DNA from: Candidatus Tayloriibacteriota bacterium
GTDB lineage: Bacteria > Patescibacteriota > Minisyncoccia > Phycocordibacterales > PALSA-1337
Reading direction: 5' to 3'
NCBI GenBank assembly: GCA_003151615.1
Contig: PLXZ01000004.1
Coordinates: 239,441 to 303,440 of the forward strand
DNA length: 64,000 nucleotides
The position numbers and the translations under genes were made by a program. Within the stretch, counting starts at the first letter, position 1; each line of letters begins with the position of its first letter. The notes beneath the pieces are model-generated. The model did no database searches. It was not told the DNA's origin and was given only the letters and a program-made list of their open reading frames with translations. Shown here in pieces: positions 1,995 through 59,109 of this stretch.

Positions 1995-3776
1995 TTGTCC
2001 GCATTTTCAAAAAAATACGCCAAAAAACAAAAGCATAACCGGGAAATAAATCCCGACGAGATTTTCATGGACTCGAAAAATATCTCGGATTTCGACACGG
2101 ACCAGTTCGAGGGGCGCCTCGAAAAACCGATCTCGACTTTTGCCATGCTCGGCATCGGGATTTTTTTTGCGCTGATTGTCCTGGTGTTCATGTCGAAGCT
2201 GACCATGCTTCAGGTTGTTCATGCCGGGGAATACACAACGCTCAGCGAAAACAATACCCTCCGGTCGACGCCGATTTTTGCCGCGCGCGGCGTGATATAT
2301 GACAGAAATGGGGTGGAGCTGGCGTGGAATGCTCCGTCAATTCCGGCAACGGCCACATCAACCGCATCGAGTTCGTCCGCGGACATAGACGCGTCCGGCG
2401 AATCCGTGCCGACCCGCGAATACACTGATTTGCCCGGATTGTCCCATACCCTCGGCTATGTACAGTATCCGTCAAAGGATTCCAGCGGATTTTATTATCA
2501 GGAAGATTTCGACGGCGTGGCCGGAGCTGAAAAATATTTCAACTCGATTTTGACCGGACAAAACGGACTGAACCTTATTGAGGTCGATGCCCGCGACCAA
2601 GTTCAATCGGAAAGCACGGTCCGTCCGCCGCAGGAGGGGACGAACGTGACTTTGTCCGTCGACTCAAAAGTCCAGAGCGAACTGTATTCAGCCATCGTTG
2701 ACATCGCCGGCAAGAGCGGATTTACCGGCGGCGCGGGAGTGATTATGGATGTTCACACTGGCGAAATTATTGCTGACACCAGCTATCCGGAATACAGTTC
2801 CGAAGCGATGTCTTCGAAAACAAATGCAACGCTTCTGTATTCCTATTTCAACAATCCGAATCATCCGTTTCTTGACCGGGTGACGCAGGGTCTCTACGTA
2901 CCCGGTTCGATCATAAAGCCGTACATGGCGCTGGCGGCCCTCGACGATAATGTCATTTCGCCGACCACAATCATTCAAGGTACGAAATATATTTCAATTC
3001 AAAATCCCTACGATCCGACAAAATCGACGATTTTCAACGACTGGCAGGTGCAGGGTCCCGAGGACATGTACAAGGCCATCGCCGAATCTTCCGACGTTTA
3101 TTTTTATGAAATCGGCGGCGGATACAAAAATCAGAAAGGCCTTGGCATCACCAAAATAGACAAATATATTCCGATGTTCGGCTTCGGTGCGCCTGTTGCC
3201 GCGAATACCGACGGTTTGCCCGACACCGACAGGGAAGGTTCTTTTTTTGCGAGTGCATCCGGCACCATCCCTTCGCCCGCATGGAAGGCCGCCACATTTG
3301 GCGGTGAACAATGGTATTTGGGAGACACGTATCACACTTCCATCGGCCAATACGGCTATCAGGTTACGCCTATTCAGGCAGTGCGCGGCATGGCATCGAT
3401 TGCCAATGGCGGAACAGTTTTGAATCCGACTATTATCAAAGGCGATCAAGGAACGATTGCGCAGACGGTTCCGATTCCGGCCGCCGATTTCCAGGTGGTG
3501 CGCGATGGCATGCGGCAGGGTGCCGAATCGGGCGTGACCGATGCCTTGAACTTGCCATTCGTGCAGGTGGCTTCAAAATCCGGTACGGCCCAATTGGGAG
3601 TCCGGCTTCAATCGGTCAACTCCTGGATTACCGGTTTCTGGCCATACAACAATCCGAAATATGCTTTTGCCATTTTGCTCGACAACGGCCCTTCGACCGA
3701 AACCGTTAACGCAACCAATGCCATGGTCGAGGTTTTGAACTGGATGAATACGAACGCTCCTAGCTACTTCCAATAA
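1995..3776 (+). CDS. mrdA: penicillin-binding protein 2 (class B transpeptidase)
   Basis: SxxK (SIIKP) and KSG/KTG (KSGTAQ) motifs; mreBCD context. Confidence 0.8.
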   Translation: MSAFSKKYAKKQKHNREINPDEIFMDSKNISDFDTDQFEGRLEKPISTFAMLGIGIFFALIVLVFMSKLTMLQVVHAGEYTTLSENNTLRSTPIFAARGVIYDRNGVELAWNAPSIPATATSTASSSSADIDASGESVPTREYTDLPGLSHTLGYVQYPSKDSSGFYYQEDFDGVAGAEKYFNSILTGQNGLNLIEVDARDQVQSESTVRPPQEGTNVTLSVDSKVQSELYSAIVDIAGKSGFTGGAGVIMDVHTGEIIADTSYPEYSSEAMSSKTNATLLYSYFNNPNHPFLDRVTQGLYVPGSIIKPYMALAALDDNVISPTTIIQGTKYISIQNPYDPTKSTIFNDWQVQGPEDMYKAIAESSDVYFYEIGGGYKNQKGLGITKIDKYIPMFGFGAPVAANTDGLPDTDREGSFFASASGTIPSPAWKAATFGGEQWYLGDTYHTSIGQYGYQVTPIQAVRGMASIANGGTVLNPTIIKGDQGTIAQTVPIPAADFQVVRDGMRQGAESGVTDALNLPFVQVASKSGTAQLGVRLQSVNSWITGFWPYNNPKYAFAILLDNGPSTETVNATNAMVEVLNWMNTNAPSYFQ

Positions 3777-3783
3777 TACCTTC

Positions 3784-3880
3784 CACATTCGTATTTCTTC
3801 GAGATACGGAAGTTTTGGGGCTCAAAACTTCCTCACCTCGGACCGTCGTCCTGCGACAGGTCTCTCAGAATACGAATGTG
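3784..3880 (+). repeat. Family-2 structured repeat, copy A (12-bp perfect IR arms CACATTCGTATT/AATACGAATGTG around conserved core)
   Basis: core ...GGGCT-loop hairpin, CCTCACCTC, GGACCGTCGTCC, AGGTCT shared with copies at 19882-19982 and 34172-34282. Confidence 0.6.
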
Positions 3881-3935
3881 TACAGCCTTATTGGAAGTGG
3901 TTGGAACTATGGACTTCCGTGTTTCAAAAATACAT

Positions 3936-4031
3936 CGTCATCATGCAAATGCGAATGCGAAAATCTCGGGTCATGTTTAGAGCCATATTTTGTGCTAAAG
4001 AAATGTTAAATTCGCATTTGCATGATGGTGA
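3936..4031 (+). repeat. Family-1 TIR element copy 1 (~95 bp, 18-bp terminal inverted repeats CATCATGCAAATGCGAAT)
   Basis: near-identical copies at 18592-18688 (same orientation) and 27077-27173 (internal part inverted). Confidence 0.65.
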
Positions 4032-4102
4032 TATTTAGAAGGCATCGATCCGAAGCTCAGCTTTATGTTTTCAAGATCATCTGCTCTCCACAATGGAGCC
4101 GA

Positions 4103-4131
4103 TTGCGAAACCCATTTTTAAATGCTATAAT
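4103..4131 (+). promoter_or_regulatory. candidate sigma70 promoter for greA (TTGCGA-N17-TATAAT)
   Basis: hexamers read directly; 36 nt upstream of greA ATG. Confidence 0.4.
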
Positions 4132-4166
4132 GACACTTCAATTACATTATTTATTTATCGCGAAAC

Positions 4167-4634
4167 ATGACCGAAGAAAAACAATATCTCACAAAGGAAA
4201 AGTACCAGGAGTTTAAAAAGGAACTCGAAGACCTCCGCACAAATCGCCGCAAGGAAGTGGCGGAAAATTTGGAGTATGCGAAGAAGCTCGGCGACCTTTC
4301 CGAAAATGCCGAATATCAGCAGGCTCGTGAGGAACAAGCCAGCGTCGAGGACCGCATTAACCATCTCGAACAGGTTTTAAAAACCGCTGTCATTTTGAAC
4401 GACCGTCACAGCGACAATGTCGGCATCGGTTCGACGGTGAAGGTAGAAAAAACAGGCGACAAAGAGGCCCACACCTATAAAATTGTCGGTTCGGAAGAGG
4501 CCGACATGGCAGAGGGTAAAGTTTCAAATTTGTCGCCGCTCGGCGCCGCCCTTATCGGAAAAAAGAAAGGCGACATTTTATCGGTCTCGACTCCGAAAGG
4601 AAAAGTTTCGTATACGCTTATCAGCATCGAATAA
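4167..4634 (+). CDS. greA: transcription elongation factor GreA
   Basis: N-terminal coiled coil plus FKBP-like C-domain, typical GreA length and sequence. Confidence 0.9.
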   Translation: MTEEKQYLTKEKYQEFKKELEDLRTNRRKEVAENLEYAKKLGDLSENAEYQQAREEQASVEDRINHLEQVLKTAVILNDRHSDNVGIGSTVKVEKTGDKEAHTYKIVGSEEADMAEGKVSNLSPLGAALIGKKKGDILSVSTPKGKVSYTLISIE

Positions 4635-9941: not shown

Positions 9942-11327
9942 ATGAAAACTTTCTTTAAAAAAATAGTCACGGCCGCGCTGTTGTGGGAAACCCGTGCAGT
10001 CATTAAAAAGCACAAGCCCGCAATCATTGCCATCACCGGCAGCGTGGGCAAGACTTCCACAAAAGACGCGGCATATCACATTCTGGCTGACGCCGGAGTT
10101 TTTGTGCGGAAGAGCGAAAAAAGCTTCAACAGTGAAATTGGTTTGCCGCTGACCGTCCTTGGCCTGCAGAATGCCTGGGGCAATCCGGTCGGCTGGGTCC
10201 AGAATATATTGCTCGGTCTCGGCCAGGTGTATCCGATTTTGGGAAGCGGTACGCGTGCGCCGTATCCGAAATGCCTTGTTTTGGAAGTGGGCGCCGATCA
10301 TCTGGGAGATATTGAAGGATTGGTCAAATGGCTGAAACCGGACATCGCCGCCATTACTGCCGTTTCGAAAGTTCCCGTACACGTCGAATTTTTTCCTTCT
10401 CCCGAAGCCGTTTTGAAGGAAAAGCTGGCTTTGCCGCGAGGTGTTCGATCCGGCGGCAAACTAGTTTTGCCCGCGAATGATCCTTCGATTTTGGCCGTGC
10501 GCGCCGATGTGCCGGATGCGCCATGCCTTACATTTGGCGTTGATTGTCAGGCGGATGTCATGACTGTTTCGCCGGAAATTGTGTATGGAACTGATGAAAA
10601 AAATATAGCCACATTTAAAAAGCCGGTCGGCATGTCCTTCGTTTTAAAATATGAGGCCAAAGGAATCAAGGTTTCCATAATTGGGGTTGTCGGAACCCAG
10701 CACATTCATTCCATTGCCGCAGCCGCGGCCATTGCATTGTCGTATGGAATCAATTTCGAAGCGGTTGCCGCTTCCATTCCAAAATACCAGGCTCCCCGCG
10801 GACGCATGAATATTCTGGAGGGGATTGTCGGAACCGTCCTTGTTGATGACAGTTATAATTCTTCGCCGGACGCATTGAAGGAAGCCTTGAGCGTTCTTCG
10901 TGAGATACAATCGGCCCGGAAAATTGCGGTTCTCGGCGACATGATGGAACTCGGCAAGTTTTCCGCCGAAGAGCACCGCACGGCGGGGGAGCGCGTGGCT
11001 GAAGCTTTTGGCGTGGGGACCGGCATCACCGCCGACATTCTCGTCACTGTCGGCATCCGCGCGCGTGACATTGCCGAAGGTGCCATGGCCGCGGGTCTAT
11101 CAAAGGACATGATTCACAGTTTCGATACGTCCGTTGAAGCGGGCGAGTGGCTCCGCAATCTTCTCCACAAAGAAAGCATTTTGCAAGGAGATTCGGGCAC
11201 CGTCATTCTGATAAAAGGTTCGCAGTCCTCGCGTATGGAGCGCGTCTCGTACGCTCTTCTGGCGGACCAGTCCCGCGCCGCCGAGTTTCTCGTCCGCCAG
11301 GACGCCGAGTGGCTGGCGAAGAAATAG
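9942..11327 (+). CDS. murF: Mur ligase, probable UDP-MurNAc-tripeptide--D-Ala-D-Ala ligase MurF (short N-terminus)
   Basis: Mur ligase P-loop GSVGKTSTKD, central and C-terminal Mur domains; downstream of ftsI. Confidence 0.6.
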   Translation: MKTFFKKIVTAALLWETRAVIKKHKPAIIAITGSVGKTSTKDAAYHILADAGVFVRKSEKSFNSEIGLPLTVLGLQNAWGNPVGWVQNILLGLGQVYPILGSGTRAPYPKCLVLEVGADHLGDIEGLVKWLKPDIAAITAVSKVPVHVEFFPSPEAVLKEKLALPRGVRSGGKLVLPANDPSILAVRADVPDAPCLTFGVDCQADVMTVSPEIVYGTDEKNIATFKKPVGMSFVLKYEAKGIKVSIIGVVGTQHIHSIAAAAAIALSYGINFEAVAASIPKYQAPRGRMNILEGIVGTVLVDDSYNSSPDALKEALSVLREIQSARKIAVLGDMMELGKFSAEEHRTAGERVAEAFGVGTGITADILVTVGIRARDIAEGAMAAGLSKDMIHSFDTSVEAGEWLRNLLHKESILQGDSGTVILIKGSQSSRMERVSYALLADQSRAAEFLVRQDAEWLAKK

Positions 11328-11395
11328 TTTGCAAAGCGGTTTGCCGACGCCCGATTTTTAAGTTAGATTGAAGTGCGCGGCAAACGAATACACAC

Positions 11396-11470
11396 GGCCC
11401 TATCGTCTATCGGCTAGGACACGGCCTTCTCAAGGCTGGAAGCGGAGTTCGATTCTCCGTAGGGTCACCC
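11396..11470 (+). tRNA. tRNA-Glu (anticodon CUC)
   Basis: hand-folded cloverleaf: acceptor GGCCCTA/TAGGGTC (one G-U), D-arm, anticodon stem CGGCC/GGCTG (one G-U) with loop TTCTCAA, T-arm CGGAG-TTCGATT-CTCCG. Confidence 0.75.
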
Positions 11471-11576: not shown

Positions 11577-12437
11577 TTAGCGTCCATGGCCTCCTCCTCC
11601 TGAACGGCCGCCGCCTCCCGCACTTGCGTGGGCGCCGAAACCTCCGGCACTGGCGCTTGAGCGTGCAGAACTTCCCGAATAACCGCCGCGATTTCCTCCG
11701 CCGCCAAACCATTGCGGCGGATTGCGTGCGATGGGTCCTGGCCGGAAATACGTCGGATATCGCTGCTGTTCGCGAGTGACGTAGCTTTGGTTTCTGTTCC
11801 TCCCGTAATTCGGCGAGGAACGGCCGCCACCGAGGTCCAGGTTGAGGCTTAATTCCCCCGAACTGTTGGGATAATAACCCGGGGAATAGTTATAGTTTTG
11901 CTGGTCGGCGTATGCGAACTGTTGCTGCGGGGGCGCATACACCACCTGCTGTTGCGGGGGCTGAACAAGGTAAACTACCGTAGTCGCATTTTGTTCTGCC
12001 GCCGGCGCGTCATTGCAGGCTCCGTCAGGCACCATTTCGTCCGAATTGTAATCCGTTTCCGGGCAATTAGTGACTGTCGTCGTCGGCGCGGCCGCCGGGG
12101 CTTGTGAGGTCGTGCCTCGCGGAACGTAGATGACCCGGGGTTGCGCTTCCTGGACGATGACCTGAAGAGGCTGTTGATTTTGTTGGCATTGTTGGCCGCT
12201 GTATTCATTCCGGCCAAAACCGAAATCAAGCCAATCGAAGGTGTGCCTGAACATTTCAACCGGATCGGTGGTAAAGTCATGACCTTTCACCGATTCATCT
12301 TCGTGATGAACGCCGTCGGGAGTCTCGTAAGAGTGAGTCGTCGCTTCCCGTTTTTCGTTTGTCACGCAGCCGTTGGTCAAACCAACGATCGCGACCAAAC
12401 CCGCCGCCATAACTGACAGATTAAACATTTTTTTCAT
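11577..12437 (-). CDS. secreted low-complexity (Q/P/G/Y-rich) protein with signal peptide
   Basis: N-terminal signal-like MKKMFNLSVMAAGLVAIVGLTNGC; QQQ/PP repeats and C-terminal Gly-rich tail. Confidence 0.5.
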   Translation of the reverse strand: MKKMFNLSVMAAGLVAIVGLTNGCVTNEKREATTHSYETPDGVHHEDESVKGHDFTTDPVEMFRHTFDWLDFGFGRNEYSGQQCQQNQQPLQVIVQEAQPRVIYVPRGTTSQAPAAAPTTTVTNCPETDYNSDEMVPDGACNDAPAAEQNATTVVYLVQPPQQQVVYAPPQQQFAYADQQNYNYSPGYYPNSSGELSLNLDLGGGRSSPNYGRNRNQSYVTREQQRYPTYFRPGPIARNPPQWFGGGGNRGGYSGSSARSSASAGGFGAHASAGGGGRSGGGGHGR

Positions 12438-17306: not shown

Positions 17307-18017
17307 TTGGGGGGATACCACCATTTTTTAGCCATAACGCACTCAAGCCGAGTTCAAGATGTATGGTACAATTTGTTCAACATGTATTTAAACTTACTGG
17401 AAGTTTTTTTGATTTCAATAGTTCCGATTTCACTGATCAAGTTTAAAGTAATTCCTTCAAGATTTCGTTTTGTTGTTTTGTCCGGAATTTTCGTACTACT
17501 TTTGATCCTTATATATTTTCAGGGCATAACATTAATGCAACTTGGAATAAGAATTGATGACATATCTTCAACAATAGTGCCTTATTTGTTCGCCACAATT
17601 ATTGCAATTTTCGCATTGATTGCGCTTTCAAAAATTATGAGGCATGGCCATGCAAAAGAATGGTATAAAGACCCCCATTTTCTTTTTTTATTTATTCCAA
17701 TCAGTATCGCCCAACAATTTTTATTTCAAGGATTTATTCTTTTGAAACTTGAAGGGGTATTTCCAACCGTATTTGCCGTAATTATCACCGCGCTTATTTT
17801 TGGCTATATGCACACGATCTATCCAAAACCGATTTTCAGTATGATTTTAGGAATACTGGCGGGTTTGTTCTTTGCGACACTATATGTAATTTACCCAAAT
17901 CTTCTATCGGCGTCGATATCACACGCGATATTAAACTTTACAGCCGTATATCTAGGATTCTTTACTTTTGTTGATTCCGAAGGTGTACCAAAGAAAACAG
18001 AGTTAAGCTTATTCTAA
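17307..18017 (+). CDS. CPBP family intramembrane metalloprotease (CAAX protease/Abi fold), strongly AT-rich gene
   Basis: multi-TM, conserved FGYMHT...ISHAILNF motifs; ~32% GC versus ~50% in neighbours. Confidence 0.55.
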   Translation: MGGYHHFLAITHSSRVQDVWYNLFNMYLNLLEVFLISIVPISLIKFKVIPSRFRFVVLSGIFVLLLILIYFQGITLMQLGIRIDDISSTIVPYLFATIIAIFALIALSKIMRHGHAKEWYKDPHFLFLFIPISIAQQFLFQGFILLKLEGVFPTVFAVIITALIFGYMHTIYPKPIFSMILGILAGLFFATLYVIYPNLLSASISHAILNFTAVYLGFFTFVDSEGVPKKTELSLF

Positions 18018-18138
18018 TTATTTCCCTCCATGCCGGAGTCCCGAACTCATTCATGGTTTGGAGCTAGATAGCGCTGGTTGTGGTTGTTTATTTTGGGCTA
18101 TTAATGAGACCGTTGCGCTTTTTTCAGCCTCGTGTATA

Positions 18139-18510
18139 ATGATTTCCACTATGAAAACAGCCGGAACAGCAGCAAAAACAGTTGCGAAATCAAGCGAATT
18201 CGCGGTAATCCAGACTGGAGGCAAACAGTATCAGGTTTCTGTTGGCCAGGAGATCAAAATCGAAATACTTACCGGCGAACACAAGGAGGGCGATGCAGTC
18301 GTTTTTGACAAGGTCTTGCTCGTTGATAACGGCTCGGACACTACTATCGGCGCACCTTTCATCAAGGGCGCAAAGGTAAACGCGACGATTTCTAAAATCG
18401 GCCGCGCGGCAAAAATCGACGTCATCAAATACAAGCAGAAGTCCCGCTACTTCAAGAAAAACGGCCATCGCCAACCTTTCTATCAGGTGAAGATTGAGTC
18501 TCTAAAATAA
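18139..18510 (+). CDS. rplU: 50S ribosomal protein L21 (N-terminally extended)
   Basis: FAVIQTGGKQYQV...KKNGHRQPFYQVKI; start could be 18139 or 18151 (ORF track 18058). Confidence 0.85.
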   Translation: MISTMKTAGTAAKTVAKSSEFAVIQTGGKQYQVSVGQEIKIEILTGEHKEGDAVVFDKVLLVDNGSDTTIGAPFIKGAKVNATISKIGRAAKIDVIKYKQKSRYFKKNGHRQPFYQVKIESLK

Positions 18511-18528
18511 AGAAAAGTTATTTATGAA

Positions 18529-18552
18529 AAACCTCCAATCGGAGGTTTTTTC
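18529..18552 (+). terminator. rho-independent terminator after rplU
   Basis: CCTCCAATCGGAGG hairpin + T6. Confidence 0.7.
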
Positions 18553-18591
18553 TTGCTTGGCACGTTGAGGCTGTCGATACTCTTTTTCTTT

Positions 18592-18688
18592 CACCATCAT
18601 GCAAATGCGAATGCGAAAATACAGGGTCATATTTAGAGCCATATTTTATACTAAAGAAATGTTAAATTCGCATTTGCATGATGGTGAT
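18592..18688 (+). repeat. Family-1 TIR element copy 2
   Basis: CACCATCATGCAAATGCGAAT...ATTCGCATTTGCATGATGGTG; internal sequence ~90% identical to copy 1. Confidence 0.65.
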
Positions 18689-18747
18689 GTAAAAAGGCGA
18701 GGCTCTGTCCTGAAGTTTTGCAAATCCTCAATAATCATCGATAGGCC

Positions 18748-34143: not shown

Positions 34144-34171
34144 GGGGATGATTATAGCATAAACTCCATTA

Positions 34172-34282
34172 CCCCCACGATATTGTTGTTATGCAAGACA
34201 CGGAAATTTGAGGGCTTCAAATTTCCTCCTCTACGGACCGTCGTCCTCCGAGAGGTCTTGTATAACAACAATATCGTGGGGG
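34172..34282 (+). repeat. Family-2 structured repeat, copy C (21+6-bp IR arms CCCCCACGATATTGTTGTTAT...ATAACAACAATATCGTGGGGG)
   Basis: core with 10-bp hairpin (loop GGGCT), CCTCCTCT, GGACCGTCGTCC, GAGGTCT. Confidence 0.6.
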
Positions 34283-34337
34283 TGCTAAAGATTGACATCT
34301 GTAAAAAGCAAAACCCCACAAATAAATGCAGGGTTTG

Positions 34338-34649
34338 CTATTGAAAGAGTTGGAGGATTAAATCAAAGCTATCGTCTGGCGCTGTAATGTTTCTTTGAAT
34401 TTTACGACACTCGATACACTTGTGAACTATCATCCAACCTTTCTTTGAGTGACGTTCTATGCGTATCGGTTCCATCAAATTACGGCATGTTTCCATTCGA
34501 TCGCCAGGCACAATATCTACATGTTTACACCATAGACAATGCGGGCAATGGTTACGGAAACTTCCGTTTGAAAGTGATTCCACAAACATAGAACATTTCT
34601 CACATGTAAAGGCATCGTTGCCTTTACCATAGAAATTTTTTCGCTTCAT
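34338..34649 (-). CDS. RNHCP domain protein (Cys-rich zinc-finger-like)
   Basis: literal RNHCPHC motif plus multiple CxxC pairs. Confidence 0.55.
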   Translation of the reverse strand: MKRKNFYGKGNDAFTCEKCSMFVESLSNGSFRNHCPHCLWCKHVDIVPGDRMETCRNLMEPIRIERHSKKGWMIVHKCIECRKIQRNITAPDDSFDLILQLFQ

Positions 34650-57274: not shown

Positions 57275-59086
57275 TTAAAGTGTCGCGAGCCACGCCCGGT
57301 ATTTCGCGTCCATGTCCTCAAAACTTTTCCGGTTGTCCGTTATTTTCTTTTTGCCATGAACCATTGTTATCGTGCCTTTCAAATTAACCGGCTTTTTATA
57401 GAACGGCACTTTCTCGAGCCGGGCAATTCTAGATTTTGCGTCTGTTAACGCTCCACCAAGCGTTTTTGTCGCATTTCGTATGAATGCCTCGGGTCCGAGC
57501 TTTTTGCCCGTAGCCATTTTGACAAGTTTTTTGGCCGGATACATCGACGCGTACGACCACATTTTTGTGATTTCCCTGCCGACGTTCGGGTTGTCGACGA
57601 TATAGCCGTATTTTTTGAGGAAATATTCGCGCCATTGATGGACGCCGAGTTCGGCGAGACCGTAACCATGATAGTACGCGGATGATTCCCAGGAATAAAT
57701 ATGCGGCACGTTCAAAATCGATATTGATTCGCCTGTGCGGTCAAAATATTTTTGATAGACTTTGCGCGCGGTTTTCAGCACGAAATTTTTTGTCAGATTT
57801 TTGCATTCGTAAATTTCCTTTTCGAAAAAAACGACGTATATTATGCCCATAAGTTCAAGGGGATATAATGGGTGGAGCGCCCGCAGTTTCTTTTCAAAAT
57901 GACTGAAGGGATACGCCTCGCCCGCCGCATTTTTTGCATAACGCATGCACCATTCGATGCTGGACGCCATTGTATCCATGAACATGCTGTGCGTTTCCGC
58001 CCAAGAAATGGTAGAGGGCGGATATTCGCTGTTTATGCAGACGTCTTCCTGAAGGGAGTTAAGCCGGTCAGCCGCGTGTCCGCCTTCATGAAAAACCGTG
58101 TGGATTCCCTGCGCTCCGGAACCGATTTGACCTGGAATTGCATTCGATGAAAAATCGGCCGAACCCGGCAAACGCTTGCCCTTCTCGTATCGGACAAGAT
58201 CGGTATAATGGCAAAAGCCGTTGTTATGCTTGCCTTTGCGGTCGAGAAGGTCAAGTGTTACAGCACCGCCCTTGAAGTCGATTCCGAGCGCCGCAAAGGA
58301 ACGGCCCCAATATGAAATAGCATTCTCAAACTGAAAATACTGATCTTCTTCTTTGGTGAATTCACCCGTCATCATATAGCCAAAATTCCACGGCTTGCGA
58401 AGTCCGGGTTTTTCTTTTTCGATTTCGCGCACATTTTTAAACGCATATTTTGTCTTTTGATATATGGCTTCAAAAATTGGAAAGAGCTCTTTTTTGCTCA
58501 TATCTTCGTCAATTCGAAGTTTGTATTCGTAAAAATCGGAATAGCCGACCGCGCGGGCAAATTCATTGCGAAGACCGATGATTTTTATGTAGTCATCCAG
58601 GGTCGATAGCGGCAATTTCTCCATGGATTCAAAACATGCCTTACGAATCGCTTCGTCGGGATGGGTGCGCATGAGTGAGCGCATTTTATTTTCCGATGCT
58701 GGCACAAATTTTCCGGACTTCGGATCAAGGTAGCCTTCTTTTCGCGAACTTCTTTTTTGGGCGATTTTTGCTTCGAGGGCGGAGACTTTATCCTTGATGG
58801 CTGCGGCGTGTGCCGGAGCCTGATACAAGCTGAAGAAATGATCCCATAGACCGAGCCTTCTTTTTATTTCGCCTTTTGCCATACGCATATATTGTTCGGT
58901 CTCCGCTTTCAGTTTTGGATCCGCGCGAAAAGCGTCACGGGCGGCCTGCGCCTTGTTCATGGCTTTATCGACGCTGTGATCGCCCATATATGAAAGCCAA
59001 AAATTTTTCTCGTATGCCGTGTGAAGTTTCGAATATTCCTTGTTCAAATAGTCCAGGAATTCTTTGGCGGATTTTGCTTTTTGCAT
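57275..59086 (-). CDS. M3-family oligoendopeptidase (PepF-like)
   Basis: HEGGH zinc-binding motif; ~600 aa. Confidence 0.7.
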   Translation of the reverse strand: MQKAKSAKEFLDYLNKEYSKLHTAYEKNFWLSYMGDHSVDKAMNKAQAARDAFRADPKLKAETEQYMRMAKGEIKRRLGLWDHFFSLYQAPAHAAAIKDKVSALEAKIAQKRSSRKEGYLDPKSGKFVPASENKMRSLMRTHPDEAIRKACFESMEKLPLSTLDDYIKIIGLRNEFARAVGYSDFYEYKLRIDEDMSKKELFPIFEAIYQKTKYAFKNVREIEKEKPGLRKPWNFGYMMTGEFTKEEDQYFQFENAISYWGRSFAALGIDFKGGAVTLDLLDRKGKHNNGFCHYTDLVRYEKGKRLPGSADFSSNAIPGQIGSGAQGIHTVFHEGGHAADRLNSLQEDVCINSEYPPSTISWAETHSMFMDTMASSIEWCMRYAKNAAGEAYPFSHFEKKLRALHPLYPLELMGIIYVVFFEKEIYECKNLTKNFVLKTARKVYQKYFDRTGESISILNVPHIYSWESSAYYHGYGLAELGVHQWREYFLKKYGYIVDNPNVGREITKMWSYASMYPAKKLVKMATGKKLGPEAFIRNATKTLGGALTDAKSRIARLEKVPFYKKPVNLKGTITMVHGKKKITDNRKSFEDMDAKYRAWLATL

Positions 59087-59109
59087 ATGTTGATTATAGT
59101 TCTTATTCT

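Follow-up and report, generated by a model that had tools for sequence, protein, structure and literature searches.

REPINs are doublets of REP sequences which form hairpins and are mobilised by RAYT (TnpA-REP) transposases. Correia elements of Neisseria (CREE/NEMIS) and RUP elements of Streptococcus pneumoniae are about 100-150 bp long and carry long terminal inverted repeats. They are intergenic, are often found at gene 3' ends, and their hairpins are cut by RNase III when transcribed by read-through. Subtypes with differently combined ends or interiors exist, and these elements duplicate a TA target, a feature tied to DDE transposition. Minute loop inversions are known from chloroplast non-coding hairpins, and quasipalindromes undergo template-switch mutation in bacteria.

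The anatomy of REPINs combines invariant inverted ends with a less conserved spacer of fixed length, and compensatory changes keep the hairpin (PMC3116915). The GI REPINs of Pseudomonas fluorescens SBW25 have 71 bp between their invariant 16-mers and are present in hundreds of copies (PMC3116915).

Here we describe a palindromic-ended repeat, F1, in a 64-kb stretch of DNA (the window), together with a second family of hairpin elements, F2, found in the same region. The window corresponds to bases 65,007-129,006, reversed, of contig k141_1990104 (562,931 bp) in the ENA metagenome assembly ERZ27254241. With the roughly 15 kb of this contig beyond its ends, 79 kb were examined in all. The same three assemblies carry every window protein tried. 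According to CysRS and GreA, the nearest named relatives are MAGs assigned to Candidatus Taylorbacteria, Parcubacteria, Paceibacterota or "Patescibacteria group", which identifies the host as a member of the CPR.

Six occurrences of the 18-mer CATCATGCAAATGCGAAT were counted in the window, arranged in three inverted pairs, while 0.17 are expected and none of 100 shuffled sequences reached six. The pairs start at 3939/4010, 18595/18666 and 27080/27151, with a spacing of 71 bp start to start in each. F1 arm sequences are the only 14-mers occurring at least three times in the window. No singlet arm was found there with up to three mismatches allowed, and no further copy is present in the flanking parts of the contig, 5.8 kb on the left side of the window and 9.4 kb on its right. 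The three copies and their 18-bp inverted termini, first noticed from the sequence alone, are thus real, with coordinates agreeing within a few nucleotides (Table 1).

Table 1. Positions of the F1 copies, the neighbouring terminators and the adjacent F2 element in the window.
Feature	Position	Strand	Details
F1 copy 1	3934-4032	+	arms 3934-3956 and 4010-4032 (23 nt, 91% complementary); interior 3957-4009
F1 copy 1, invariant 18-mers	3939-3956, 4010-4027		mrdA(PBP2)-greA spacer; positional homolog in L107
F1 copy 2	18582-18696	+	arms 18582-18612 and 18666-18696 (31 nt, 90% complementary); interior 18613-18665
F1 copy 2, site			spacer between convergent rplU (+) and DUF2127 gene (-); absent from the 44-bp orthologous spacer of L017
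F1 copy 3	27064-27184	-	arms 27064-27097 and 27151-27184 (34 nt, 88% complementary); interior 27098-27150
F1 copy 3, site			spacer between convergent rplI (+) and rpmA (-); no F1 in the L017 and L022 orthologous spacers
Best-conserved F1 interior block	3976-3991 (+), 18632-18647, 27116-27131 (minus strand)		TTTAGAGCCATATTTT; from alignments
rplU intrinsic terminator	18527-18551	+	AAAAACCTCC-AATC-GGAGGTTTTTT; fold -14.1 kcal/mol; ~30 nt upstream of copy 2
rplI intrinsic terminator	27049-27072	+	CCGGG-TTGCCG-CCCGG followed by a T-run; the T-run extends into the outer left arm of copy 3
rpmA bidirectional terminator hairpin	27172-27211	.	ATATAAAAAGACCTCAGG-GAAA-CCTGAGGTCTTTTTATAT; 18 nt, 100% complementary; -26.9 kcal/mol
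F2 element I6	3766-3898	+	35 nt upstream of F1 copy 1; P2 hairpin at 3808-3832

The F1 unit is 99-121 bp long, depending on how far the arms remain complementary beyond the 18-mers, and its three copies are dispersed. The arms, read as 18-25 nt, are AT-rich and contain no internal hairpin. The interior is asymmetric and measures exactly 53 nt in all three copies. Pairwise, the interiors agree at 47, 45 and 42 of the 53 positions (79-89%, with copy 3 reverse-complemented) and the whole elements are 88-94% identical. The near-identity of the interiors therefore stands, while the figure of ~90% originally given for it does not. Among the window copies, 12 of the 53 interior sites vary compared with none of the 36 arm sites (Fisher p=0.0013). 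Outside the arms of copies 2 and 3, and of the homolog described below, there is a T-run on the left (T5) and an A-run on the right (A5). These flanks lengthen the stem and are inverted, not direct, copies of each other.

Each unit folds as one long hairpin, far past shuffled controls. RNA folds have energies of -37 to -46 kcal/mol (z -5.4 to -9.0) and are stable on both strands; for single-stranded DNA the range is -24 to -34 kcal/mol (z -5.5 to -9.2). The values are -37.2 kcal/mol (z -5.4) as RNA and -24.4 (z -5.5) as ssDNA for copy 1, and -45.6 (z -7.8) and -30.7 (z -9.2), respectively, for copy 2. The long hairpin expected from the terminal repeats is thus seen in all three copies at both levels. 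Any RNA reading through a copy would contain a near-perfect duplex of 18-23 bp, with imperfect pairing out to 31-34 nt, and this duplex could serve as an RNase III substrate or as a 3' stabiliser.

In a small RNA gene family, an option named in the original prediction, each copy would be a hairpin RNA gene with its own promoter. The fold is indeed stable on both strands, and there is a weak likeness to long-hairpin miRNA precursor models, the only Rfam models to show one. In Rfam 15, no family reaches its gathering threshold on F1 (only a tRNA-Glu passes in the window), the best sub-threshold matches being plant miRNA-precursor models at 23-30 bits against gathering thresholds of 83-140. These models reward any long hairpin. 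No sigma-70-like promoter was found within the copies or immediately before them, and the hairpin is not followed by a terminator; the orientation relative to neighbouring genes is unconstrained and the interior varies at 12 of 53 sites among recent paralogs. The small RNA reading is poorly supported and we regard it as very improbable.

The frame MQMRMRK...HLHDGD (about 31 aa or longer) is open across all three copies, which would permit a small protein. Its stop positions vary among the copies, the substitutions are mostly non-synonymous, and in the L107 homolog described below the frame closes after four codons (M-R-M-K-stop). No match was found among 5.8 billion proteins, in searches where the open-frame peptides were used concatenated in order to catch mis-called ORFs over other copies, and the gene caller of the contig annotation predicts nothing at F1. 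A small protein is poorly supported and effectively refuted, and the short ORFs called over the copies are artefacts of the repeat, as had been suggested.

The neighbouring genes had been assigned correctly: copy 1 lies between the PBP2-type transpeptidase gene and greA, copy 2 between rplU and the DUF2127 gene, copy 3 between rplI and rpmA. The association with terminators is weaker than claimed, as it holds for copies 2 and 3 and fails for copy 1. A consensus scan called no terminator-like site in 3700-4200, and the hairpin upstream of copy 1 lacks a T-run and is helix P2 of an F2 element. The rplU terminator was placed by eye from sequence and fold; the consensus scan did not list this site. 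The A-run of the rpmA terminator hairpin overlaps the outer right arm of copy 3. Adjacency of this kind is also expected if, in a compact genome, insertions are tolerated in 3'-end spacers alone.

F1 itself is not an intrinsic terminator, because on both strands the U-run is located 5' and the A-run 3' of the stem. No terminator-like site was called inside any copy, and the identity of a bidirectional terminator, considered from the sequence, was rejected.

Contigs with CysRS 82% (L017-L021, L027-L029) and 74% (L022) identical to that of the window are collinear with window positions from about 12 to 34 kb and allow orthologous spacers to be compared. The rpmA-rplI spacer is 107 bp in L017 and 89 bp in L022 versus 220 bp in the window, and that between rplU and the DUF2127 gene is 44 bp in L017 versus 237 bp, F1 being absent from the shorter spacer in each case; these contrasts, like all those reported here, are between species, not strains. 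At the third site, the mrdA-greA spacer of L109, L114 and L111 (GreA 88%, 88% and 83% identical) is 80-93 bp long and holds neither F1 nor F2. A covariance-model search of ~0.9 Mb of DNA from related Patescibacteria, taken from the surroundings of CysRS, revealed no F1 copy.

One homolog was found, on a 2-kb JGI contig (L107; 3300048822, Ga0495402_0051136; GreA 92% identical), where it occupies positions 921-1033 in the mrdA-greA spacer, that is, the position of copy 1. It aligns to F1 over 113 columns with zero gaps and with 57-65 identities. Its stem is formed by TTTTTCCAAATGAGGATGAAG and CTTCATTCTCATTTGCAAAAA. Six stem pairs differ from F1 on both sides and are still paired, and four inner pairs are gained. 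Over F1 and L107 together, 87.5% of the stem cells are paired, compared with only 27-41% in slid controls, and the covariation score was reached by none of 500 shuffles. In the interior, identity to L107 is 51% across the 53 nt that the invariant arms enclose (counted by hand), or 25/45 over columns 35-79. Its central block TTT.A.AGCCATATTTT is kept, and the best-conserved block TTTAGAGCCATATTTT reads TTTTAAGCCATATTTT in L107. The L107 hairpin is the MFE and centroid structure only on the strand sense to mrdA and greA, owing to a G-U pair.

The presence of a homolog at the greA site indicates that the F1 family was already there before the L107 lineage split off. Two additional copies are found in the window genome, both in 3'-end spacers which are empty of F1 in relatives. 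The three copies of the window resemble one another far more closely than copy 1 resembles the homolog at its own position in L107, suggesting either recent spread within the lineage or concerted evolution.

The same comparison bears on the possibility that F1 is a selected hairpin module of gene 3' ends and intergenic spacers, working at the RNA or DNA level and not merely selfish DNA. Such a module might act on read-through RNA, by RNase III processing, 3'-end protection or insulation of convergent transcription, or alternatively as a DNA hairpin or cruciform bound by a protein, and would be a functional analogue of the F2 family of the same clade. The six double stem changes that preserve pairing, the invariance of the arms among paralogs and the conservation of the central block AGCCATATTTT while the neighbouring spacer DNA has largely diverged are consistent with selection. 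The rpmA-rplI spacer, occupied by F1 in the window but by F2 in L017 and L031, agrees with this, as does, weakly, the strand preference of the L107 hairpin. However, reoccupation of one spacer is also expected if few spacers tolerate insertions, template switching can homogenise arms without selection, and 51% interior identity is too low to point to a particular fold. Copies 2 and 3 come after functional-looking terminators and may rarely be transcribed, and relatives manage without F1 at all three sites. We consider a selected function rather unlikely, though it is the main rival of the mobile-repeat reading given below. It does not exclude mobility: the two readings are compatible, and mobility goes together with functional use in REP, ERIC and Correia elements.

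We searched the flanks for signatures of insertion. Across all symmetric boundaries 0-15 nt outside the 18-mers, direct repeats of 2-10 bp are never found around more than one F1 copy. Candidate 9-nt direct repeats near copy 2 (GAGGCTGTC and GAGGCTCTGTC) and near copy 3 (GGTCTTTTT, twice) have offsets that do not agree, and the pair near copy 3 is part of the two terminators; both were rejected as target-site duplications.

In agreement with the original prediction, there is no transposase ORF. Across the 79 kb examined, no gene for a transposase, RAYT, integrase or recombinase was found; the genes of the window and of its 5.8-kb and 9.4-kb extensions are all housekeeping or small unknown ones. 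An insertion sequence with F1 ends (ACATCACCATCATGCAAATGCGAAT) was found neither there nor among GTDB representatives, JGI metagenomes, IMG/VR, plasmids or phages.

These results bear on a classical MITE, that is, a deletion derivative of an insertion sequence with a DDE transposase, moved by cut-and-paste through its terminal inverted repeats. F1 does have terminal inverted repeats (18 nt perfect; 23-34 nt at 88-91% complementarity), is small, lacks a conserved ORF, and is present in several dispersed copies in a lineage-specific manner. It shows no direct target-site duplication, though, its flanks being inverted (T-run left, A-run right), and no parental insertion sequence was found in the 79 kb or the public collections searched. 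As the duplication is a defining feature of MITEs, the classical MITE fits F1 less well than a REPIN, and we judge it improbable.

The general class named in the original prediction, MITE/REP-like, is nevertheless right, given that F1 is multi-copy, palindromic-ended, without an ORF, intergenic, absent from the relatives' spacers and unknown to the databases searched; the cut-and-paste MITE is not supported. The prediction had been staked on further copies, target-site duplications or insertion polymorphism being found, and on F1 not belonging to a known REP or BOX family. There is no duplication and no further copy in the 15 kb beyond the ends, which goes against it, whereas presence and absence in relatives, the diverged homolog and the lack of a match to any known REP or BOX family speak in its favour.

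F1 resembles the SBW25 REPINs in its invariant inverted ends, its less conserved spacer of fixed length and the maintenance of the stem by compensatory changes. Like REPINs, it forms a long hairpin in ssDNA and mRNA, is extragenic, has no ORF and leaves no target-site duplication. Both sets of ends are 71 bp apart, start to start, which is a numerical coincidence, although the scale is the same. Unlike REPs, F1 has AT-rich arms which are not imperfect palindromes and carry no GTAG-type or recognisable RAYT cleavage motif. Three copies are seen in 79 kb, without singlets or clusters, compared with the hundreds of SBW25, and the host has a reduced CPR genome, unlike the host of the SBW25 REPINs. 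REPIN membership cannot be claimed for F1, as its arms are not REP-like palindromes and only three copies are present in 79 kb. With Correia and RUP elements, compared by description only, F1 shares the ~100-bp scale, long inverted ends and intergenic location; it differs in having no TA or other direct duplication and no known sequence similarity to them.

Overall, we give about an even chance to F1 being a non-autonomous palindromic repeat family of the REPIN/MITE kind, REPIN-like and mobilised in trans. An enzyme encoded outside the 79 kb would recognise the arms and copy the unit, most likely through a single-stranded hairpin intermediate, as with HUH/RAYT-type enzymes. Hairpin copying is preferred over cut-and-paste because of the missing target-site duplication, the invariant arms combined with a drifting spacer, and the compensatory stem changes. 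Copies would survive only where they are harmless, in AT-rich DNA just past terminators or between genes.

Several observations are counted against the mobile-repeat reading. There are just three copies in 79 kb and one homolog elsewhere; neither an excision nor an insertion event was observed; no transposase, RAYT or recombinase gene is located within this region; and the arms, being neither small palindromes nor carriers of a GTAG-type motif, are unlike typical REPs. The upkeep of the hairpin and the invariance of the arms could equally reflect a selected function or concerted evolution by template switching.

The interior of copy 3 is oriented opposite to those of copies 1 and 2, as first noted, and had been described as flipped relative to the termini. 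The perfect arms themselves are uninformative on this point. In the outer flanks (14 nt per side), copies 2 and 3 match at 24 of 28 positions when compared in the same genomic orientation and at 20 of 28 when one is flipped, so that a flip relative to the termini is mildly favoured, by about four positions. Under the mobile-repeat reading, the whole unit may have been inserted the other way round. Alternatively, the loop may have flipped by strand switching in the hairpin, an option that the flanks slightly favour. Loop inversion and template switching can flip a spacer between perfect inverted repeats and keep the arms complementary without selection, and would explain both the orientation of copy 3 and the inverted flank repeats. 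They are mutational processes and not element families, and leave the spread to new loci unexplained.

We also looked for F1 in wider collections. In GTDB representative genomes (596 Gb), the exact 18-mer has 15 single matches, which is about the chance expectation, and no paired ones. Paired F1 14-mers are absent from JGI metagenomes and the 18-mer from IMG/VR, and blastn against PLSDB plasmids and INPHARED phages gave no match. A degenerate arm pattern has three matches in IMG/VR, where ~1-2 are expected by chance, and none was accepted as a member of the family: two are Fur-box-like TGAGAAT-N-ATTCTCA operator repeats, and the third (L115) is a hairpin from a phage, which matches the 75-nt span and carries an (AATGAG)x3 tandem but has an interior unrelated to F1.

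The interior motif AGAGCCATAT was considered as a clade-wide operator or promoter and rejected, being not enriched in 0.9 Mb of related loci (57 occurrences versus ~54 expected). Upstream of rpmA in L038, a region that contains a palindrome is identical to it over 19 nt, and there is a one-mismatch site at 27732 of the window; these matches are treated as local or due to chance. An integron attC site was rejected in view of the absence of R' and R'' boxes at the F1 ends and the housekeeping character of the neighbouring genes. A parS or dif identity was considered from the sequence and likewise rejected. In full-text literature searches for such elements, no description was found of small palindromic or MITE-type repeats, or of structured intergenic hairpins, in CPR genomes. 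F1 is most likely a previously undescribed family, although its kind of bacterial repeat is well known and ordinary.

An inverted-repeat scan found four F2 elements in the window, at 3766-3898, 19875-19989, 21447-21570 and 34171-34283. The outer stem of F2 is 29-34 bp long and near-perfect, and its sequence is different in every copy. It closes on CAAGAC/GTCTTG around a conserved core of about 55 nt, which folds into two hairpins, giving a three-way junction. The interior measures 55-56 nt in three of the four elements in the window, whereas I6, the element next to F1 copy 1, has 73 nt between its arms. L022 carries orthologs both in the spacer between ftsW and murG and in front of dnaB, with the core conserved and the stems rewritten yet paired. 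A covariance model of F2 revealed further members in L017, L022, L030, L031 and L055. Among 12 distinct sequences, 92.6% of the cells are paired and 20 of the 24 pairs are changed on both sides; none of 500 shuffles reached the observed value in any of five measures. F2 has no match in Rfam 15. It is a candidate new structured RNA or DNA element in the phylum and a stronger candidate than F1 for something new.

Homology between F1 and F2 was rejected, as F1 gets no score from the F2 covariance model and BLAST finds no similarity between the two. The two families share the same size plan (given the 53-nt interior of F1), the same kinds of spacers and compensatory stem evolution, and across relatives they occupy the same rpmA-rplI spacer, which contains F1 in the window but F2 in both L017 and L031. 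Their design differs: F2 combines a conserved three-way-junction core with a stem of its own in each copy, whereas F1 has identical stems and an interior with little structure. In this clade, the same small set of spacers is thus occupied again and again by long hairpin elements, which belong to several families.

One may speculate that F1 and F2 are two families of a single selected class of long-stem hairpin modules in Parcubacteria, which we hold to be unlikely. Selection would maintain the members of such a class at the 3' ends of genes and within operons, where they might serve as sites of RNase III processing or insulation, or as protein-bound DNA hairpins. They would replace one another at the same spacer, as could have happened between rpmA and rplI, and their spread would rely on a copy mechanism that depends on the hairpin and is so far undescribed in CPR bacteria.

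Repeats of this kind break assemblies and can pass for terminators. They also create spurious ORFs, two of which were called here by six-frame translation. F2 may matter more than F1; it is found within essential operons, among them dnaB-recR and ftsW-murG. Genomes of CPR/Patescibacteria are small and compact. A hairpin repeat with arms invariant among copies and a stem maintained between species by compensatory change would mean that miniature mobile DNA is still active in them or has been put to use by them, and would imply a mobilising enzyme not seen so far.

F2, the second hairpin family of this genome, is unrelated to F1 and combines a variable stem with a conserved core. The outer stem (29-34 bp) differs in sequence in every copy, and the stems of orthologous elements have been rewritten with compensation. 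Inside it lies a conserved core of about 55 nt forming a three-way junction, with the consensus ACRG-[GAAATTTGA GGGCT TCAAATTTC]-CTCACCTC-[GGAC CGTC GTCC]-TNCGRNAG. Base pairing is intact in 92.6% of cells when 12 distinct members are compared, and both sides have changed in 20 of the 24 pairs, values reached by none of 500 shuffles. An Rfam search with F2 gave no match. We consider F2 a candidate for a new structured RNA or DNA element. It occurs within the dnaB-recR and ftsW-murG operons, after mrdA and upstream of dnaB; copies in relatives lie within the rpmA-rplI spacer or next to it.

An outer imperfect inverted repeat of 33 nt (AATGTTTATAAGGT.../...ACCTTATAAAC, 21411-21610) surrounds the F2 copy that precedes dnaB, giving a compound hairpin of about 200 nt. 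The outer repeat around this element is also found in the syntenic relative L022 (~12150-12320).

F2 members and genes that differ between relatives at hairpin-bearing spacers (L-numbers are fetched contigs)
Feature	Sequence	Position	Strand	Remark
F2	window	3766-3898		
F2	window	19875-19989		
F2	window	21447-21570		
F2	window	34171-34283		
F2	L022	2275-2390	-	
F2	L022	12197-12276	-	
F2	L022	1534-1614	+	
F2	L017	7150-7265		
F2	L031	6762-6839		
F2	L031	7588-7665		
F2	L030	3164-3241		
F2	L030	10501-10580		
F2	L055	11352-11429		
RNHCP-domain ORF	window	34338-34649	-	ftsW-murG interval; Pfam E=1e-30
Uridine-kinase-like gene	window	21975-22724	+	cysS-dnaB interval
Rce1-like gene	window	17307-18017	+	adjoins rplU; absent from L017
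ORF, 117 aa	L022	1771-2124		ftsW-murG place; unrelated to window ORF
ORF, 144 aa	L022	11651-12085		cysS-dnaB place; unrelated to window ORF

Spacers with hairpin elements coincide with sites of differing gene content among close relatives. The 117-aa ORF of L022 has one F2 element on each side, the two being in inverted orientation.

As a rule, rplU and rpmA form one operon. In the window they lie on different strands with 8.5 kb between them (rplU at 18058-18510, plus; rpmA at 27229-27501, minus), and rpmA is convergent on rplI. Since relatives without F1 keep the same split arrangement, F1 is not its cause.

Resemblances to the F1 interior were seen near rpmA. Upstream of this gene in a distant relative (L038, 6772-6836), the interior is matched exactly over 19 nt (CCATATTTAGAGCCATATT), next to a perfect palindrome, ATATGGCTCT-GT-AGAGCCATAT. 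The divergent promoter region on the rpmA side in the window carries the interior motif with one mismatch (27732-27742). The interior 10-mer showed no enrichment across related loci.

Two further window sites (21677-21793 and 46757-46873) each consist of an 18-nt inverted-repeat pair enclosing 81 nt with tRNA T-arm-like pieces (GGGTTCGATTCCCTC, minus strand; GCGGGTGCAACTCCCGT). Both adjoin a repeat of about 60 nt, ATGAAATTC..TAAAGA..TTAAAATTTCGATAAAAATTTG, present in inverted orientation (21840-21900 versus 46620-46680). ARAGORN and Rfam called only tRNA-Glu (11396-11469) in the window and nothing at the T-arm-like pieces. These sites and the adjoining repeat may be relics of tRNA genes or else att-like sites.

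Just beyond the window, the source contig encodes a predicted protein of 1,722 residues (bases 57,957-63,125; L023 2379-7547). The precomputed Pfam list gives it LeuRS-like class I tRNA-synthetase domains, two NUDIX domains and one HAD domain, making it either an unusual fusion or a synthetase bearing an intein or insertion.

A pattern scan, with 1-2 hits expected by chance, yielded, in the phage-like contig L115 (IMG/VR UViG_3300014039_000016, 11277-11365), a hairpin whose 18-bp arms are perfect (GGATTTTCAAATGAGAAT); a small HTH-like ORF lies on one side of it and an ORF of 260 aa on the other. The hairpin shares with F1 a 75-nt CAAATG..CATTTG span, and its (AATGAG)x3 tandem resembles the (AATGCG)x2 of F1, but the interiors are unrelated. 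More distant relatives carry long hairpins of unrelated sequence: one with a 26-bp GC-rich stem (TCATTCCCGCGAAGGCGGGAATCCAG...) at L040 7725-7825, identical to L039 2298-2398, and another in L113 at ~520-590 (ACATACCCGTGTGAT.../...ATCTCACGGGTATGT). Because such unrelated hairpins occur in these relatives, long-stem intergenic hairpins seem to be common in the clade.
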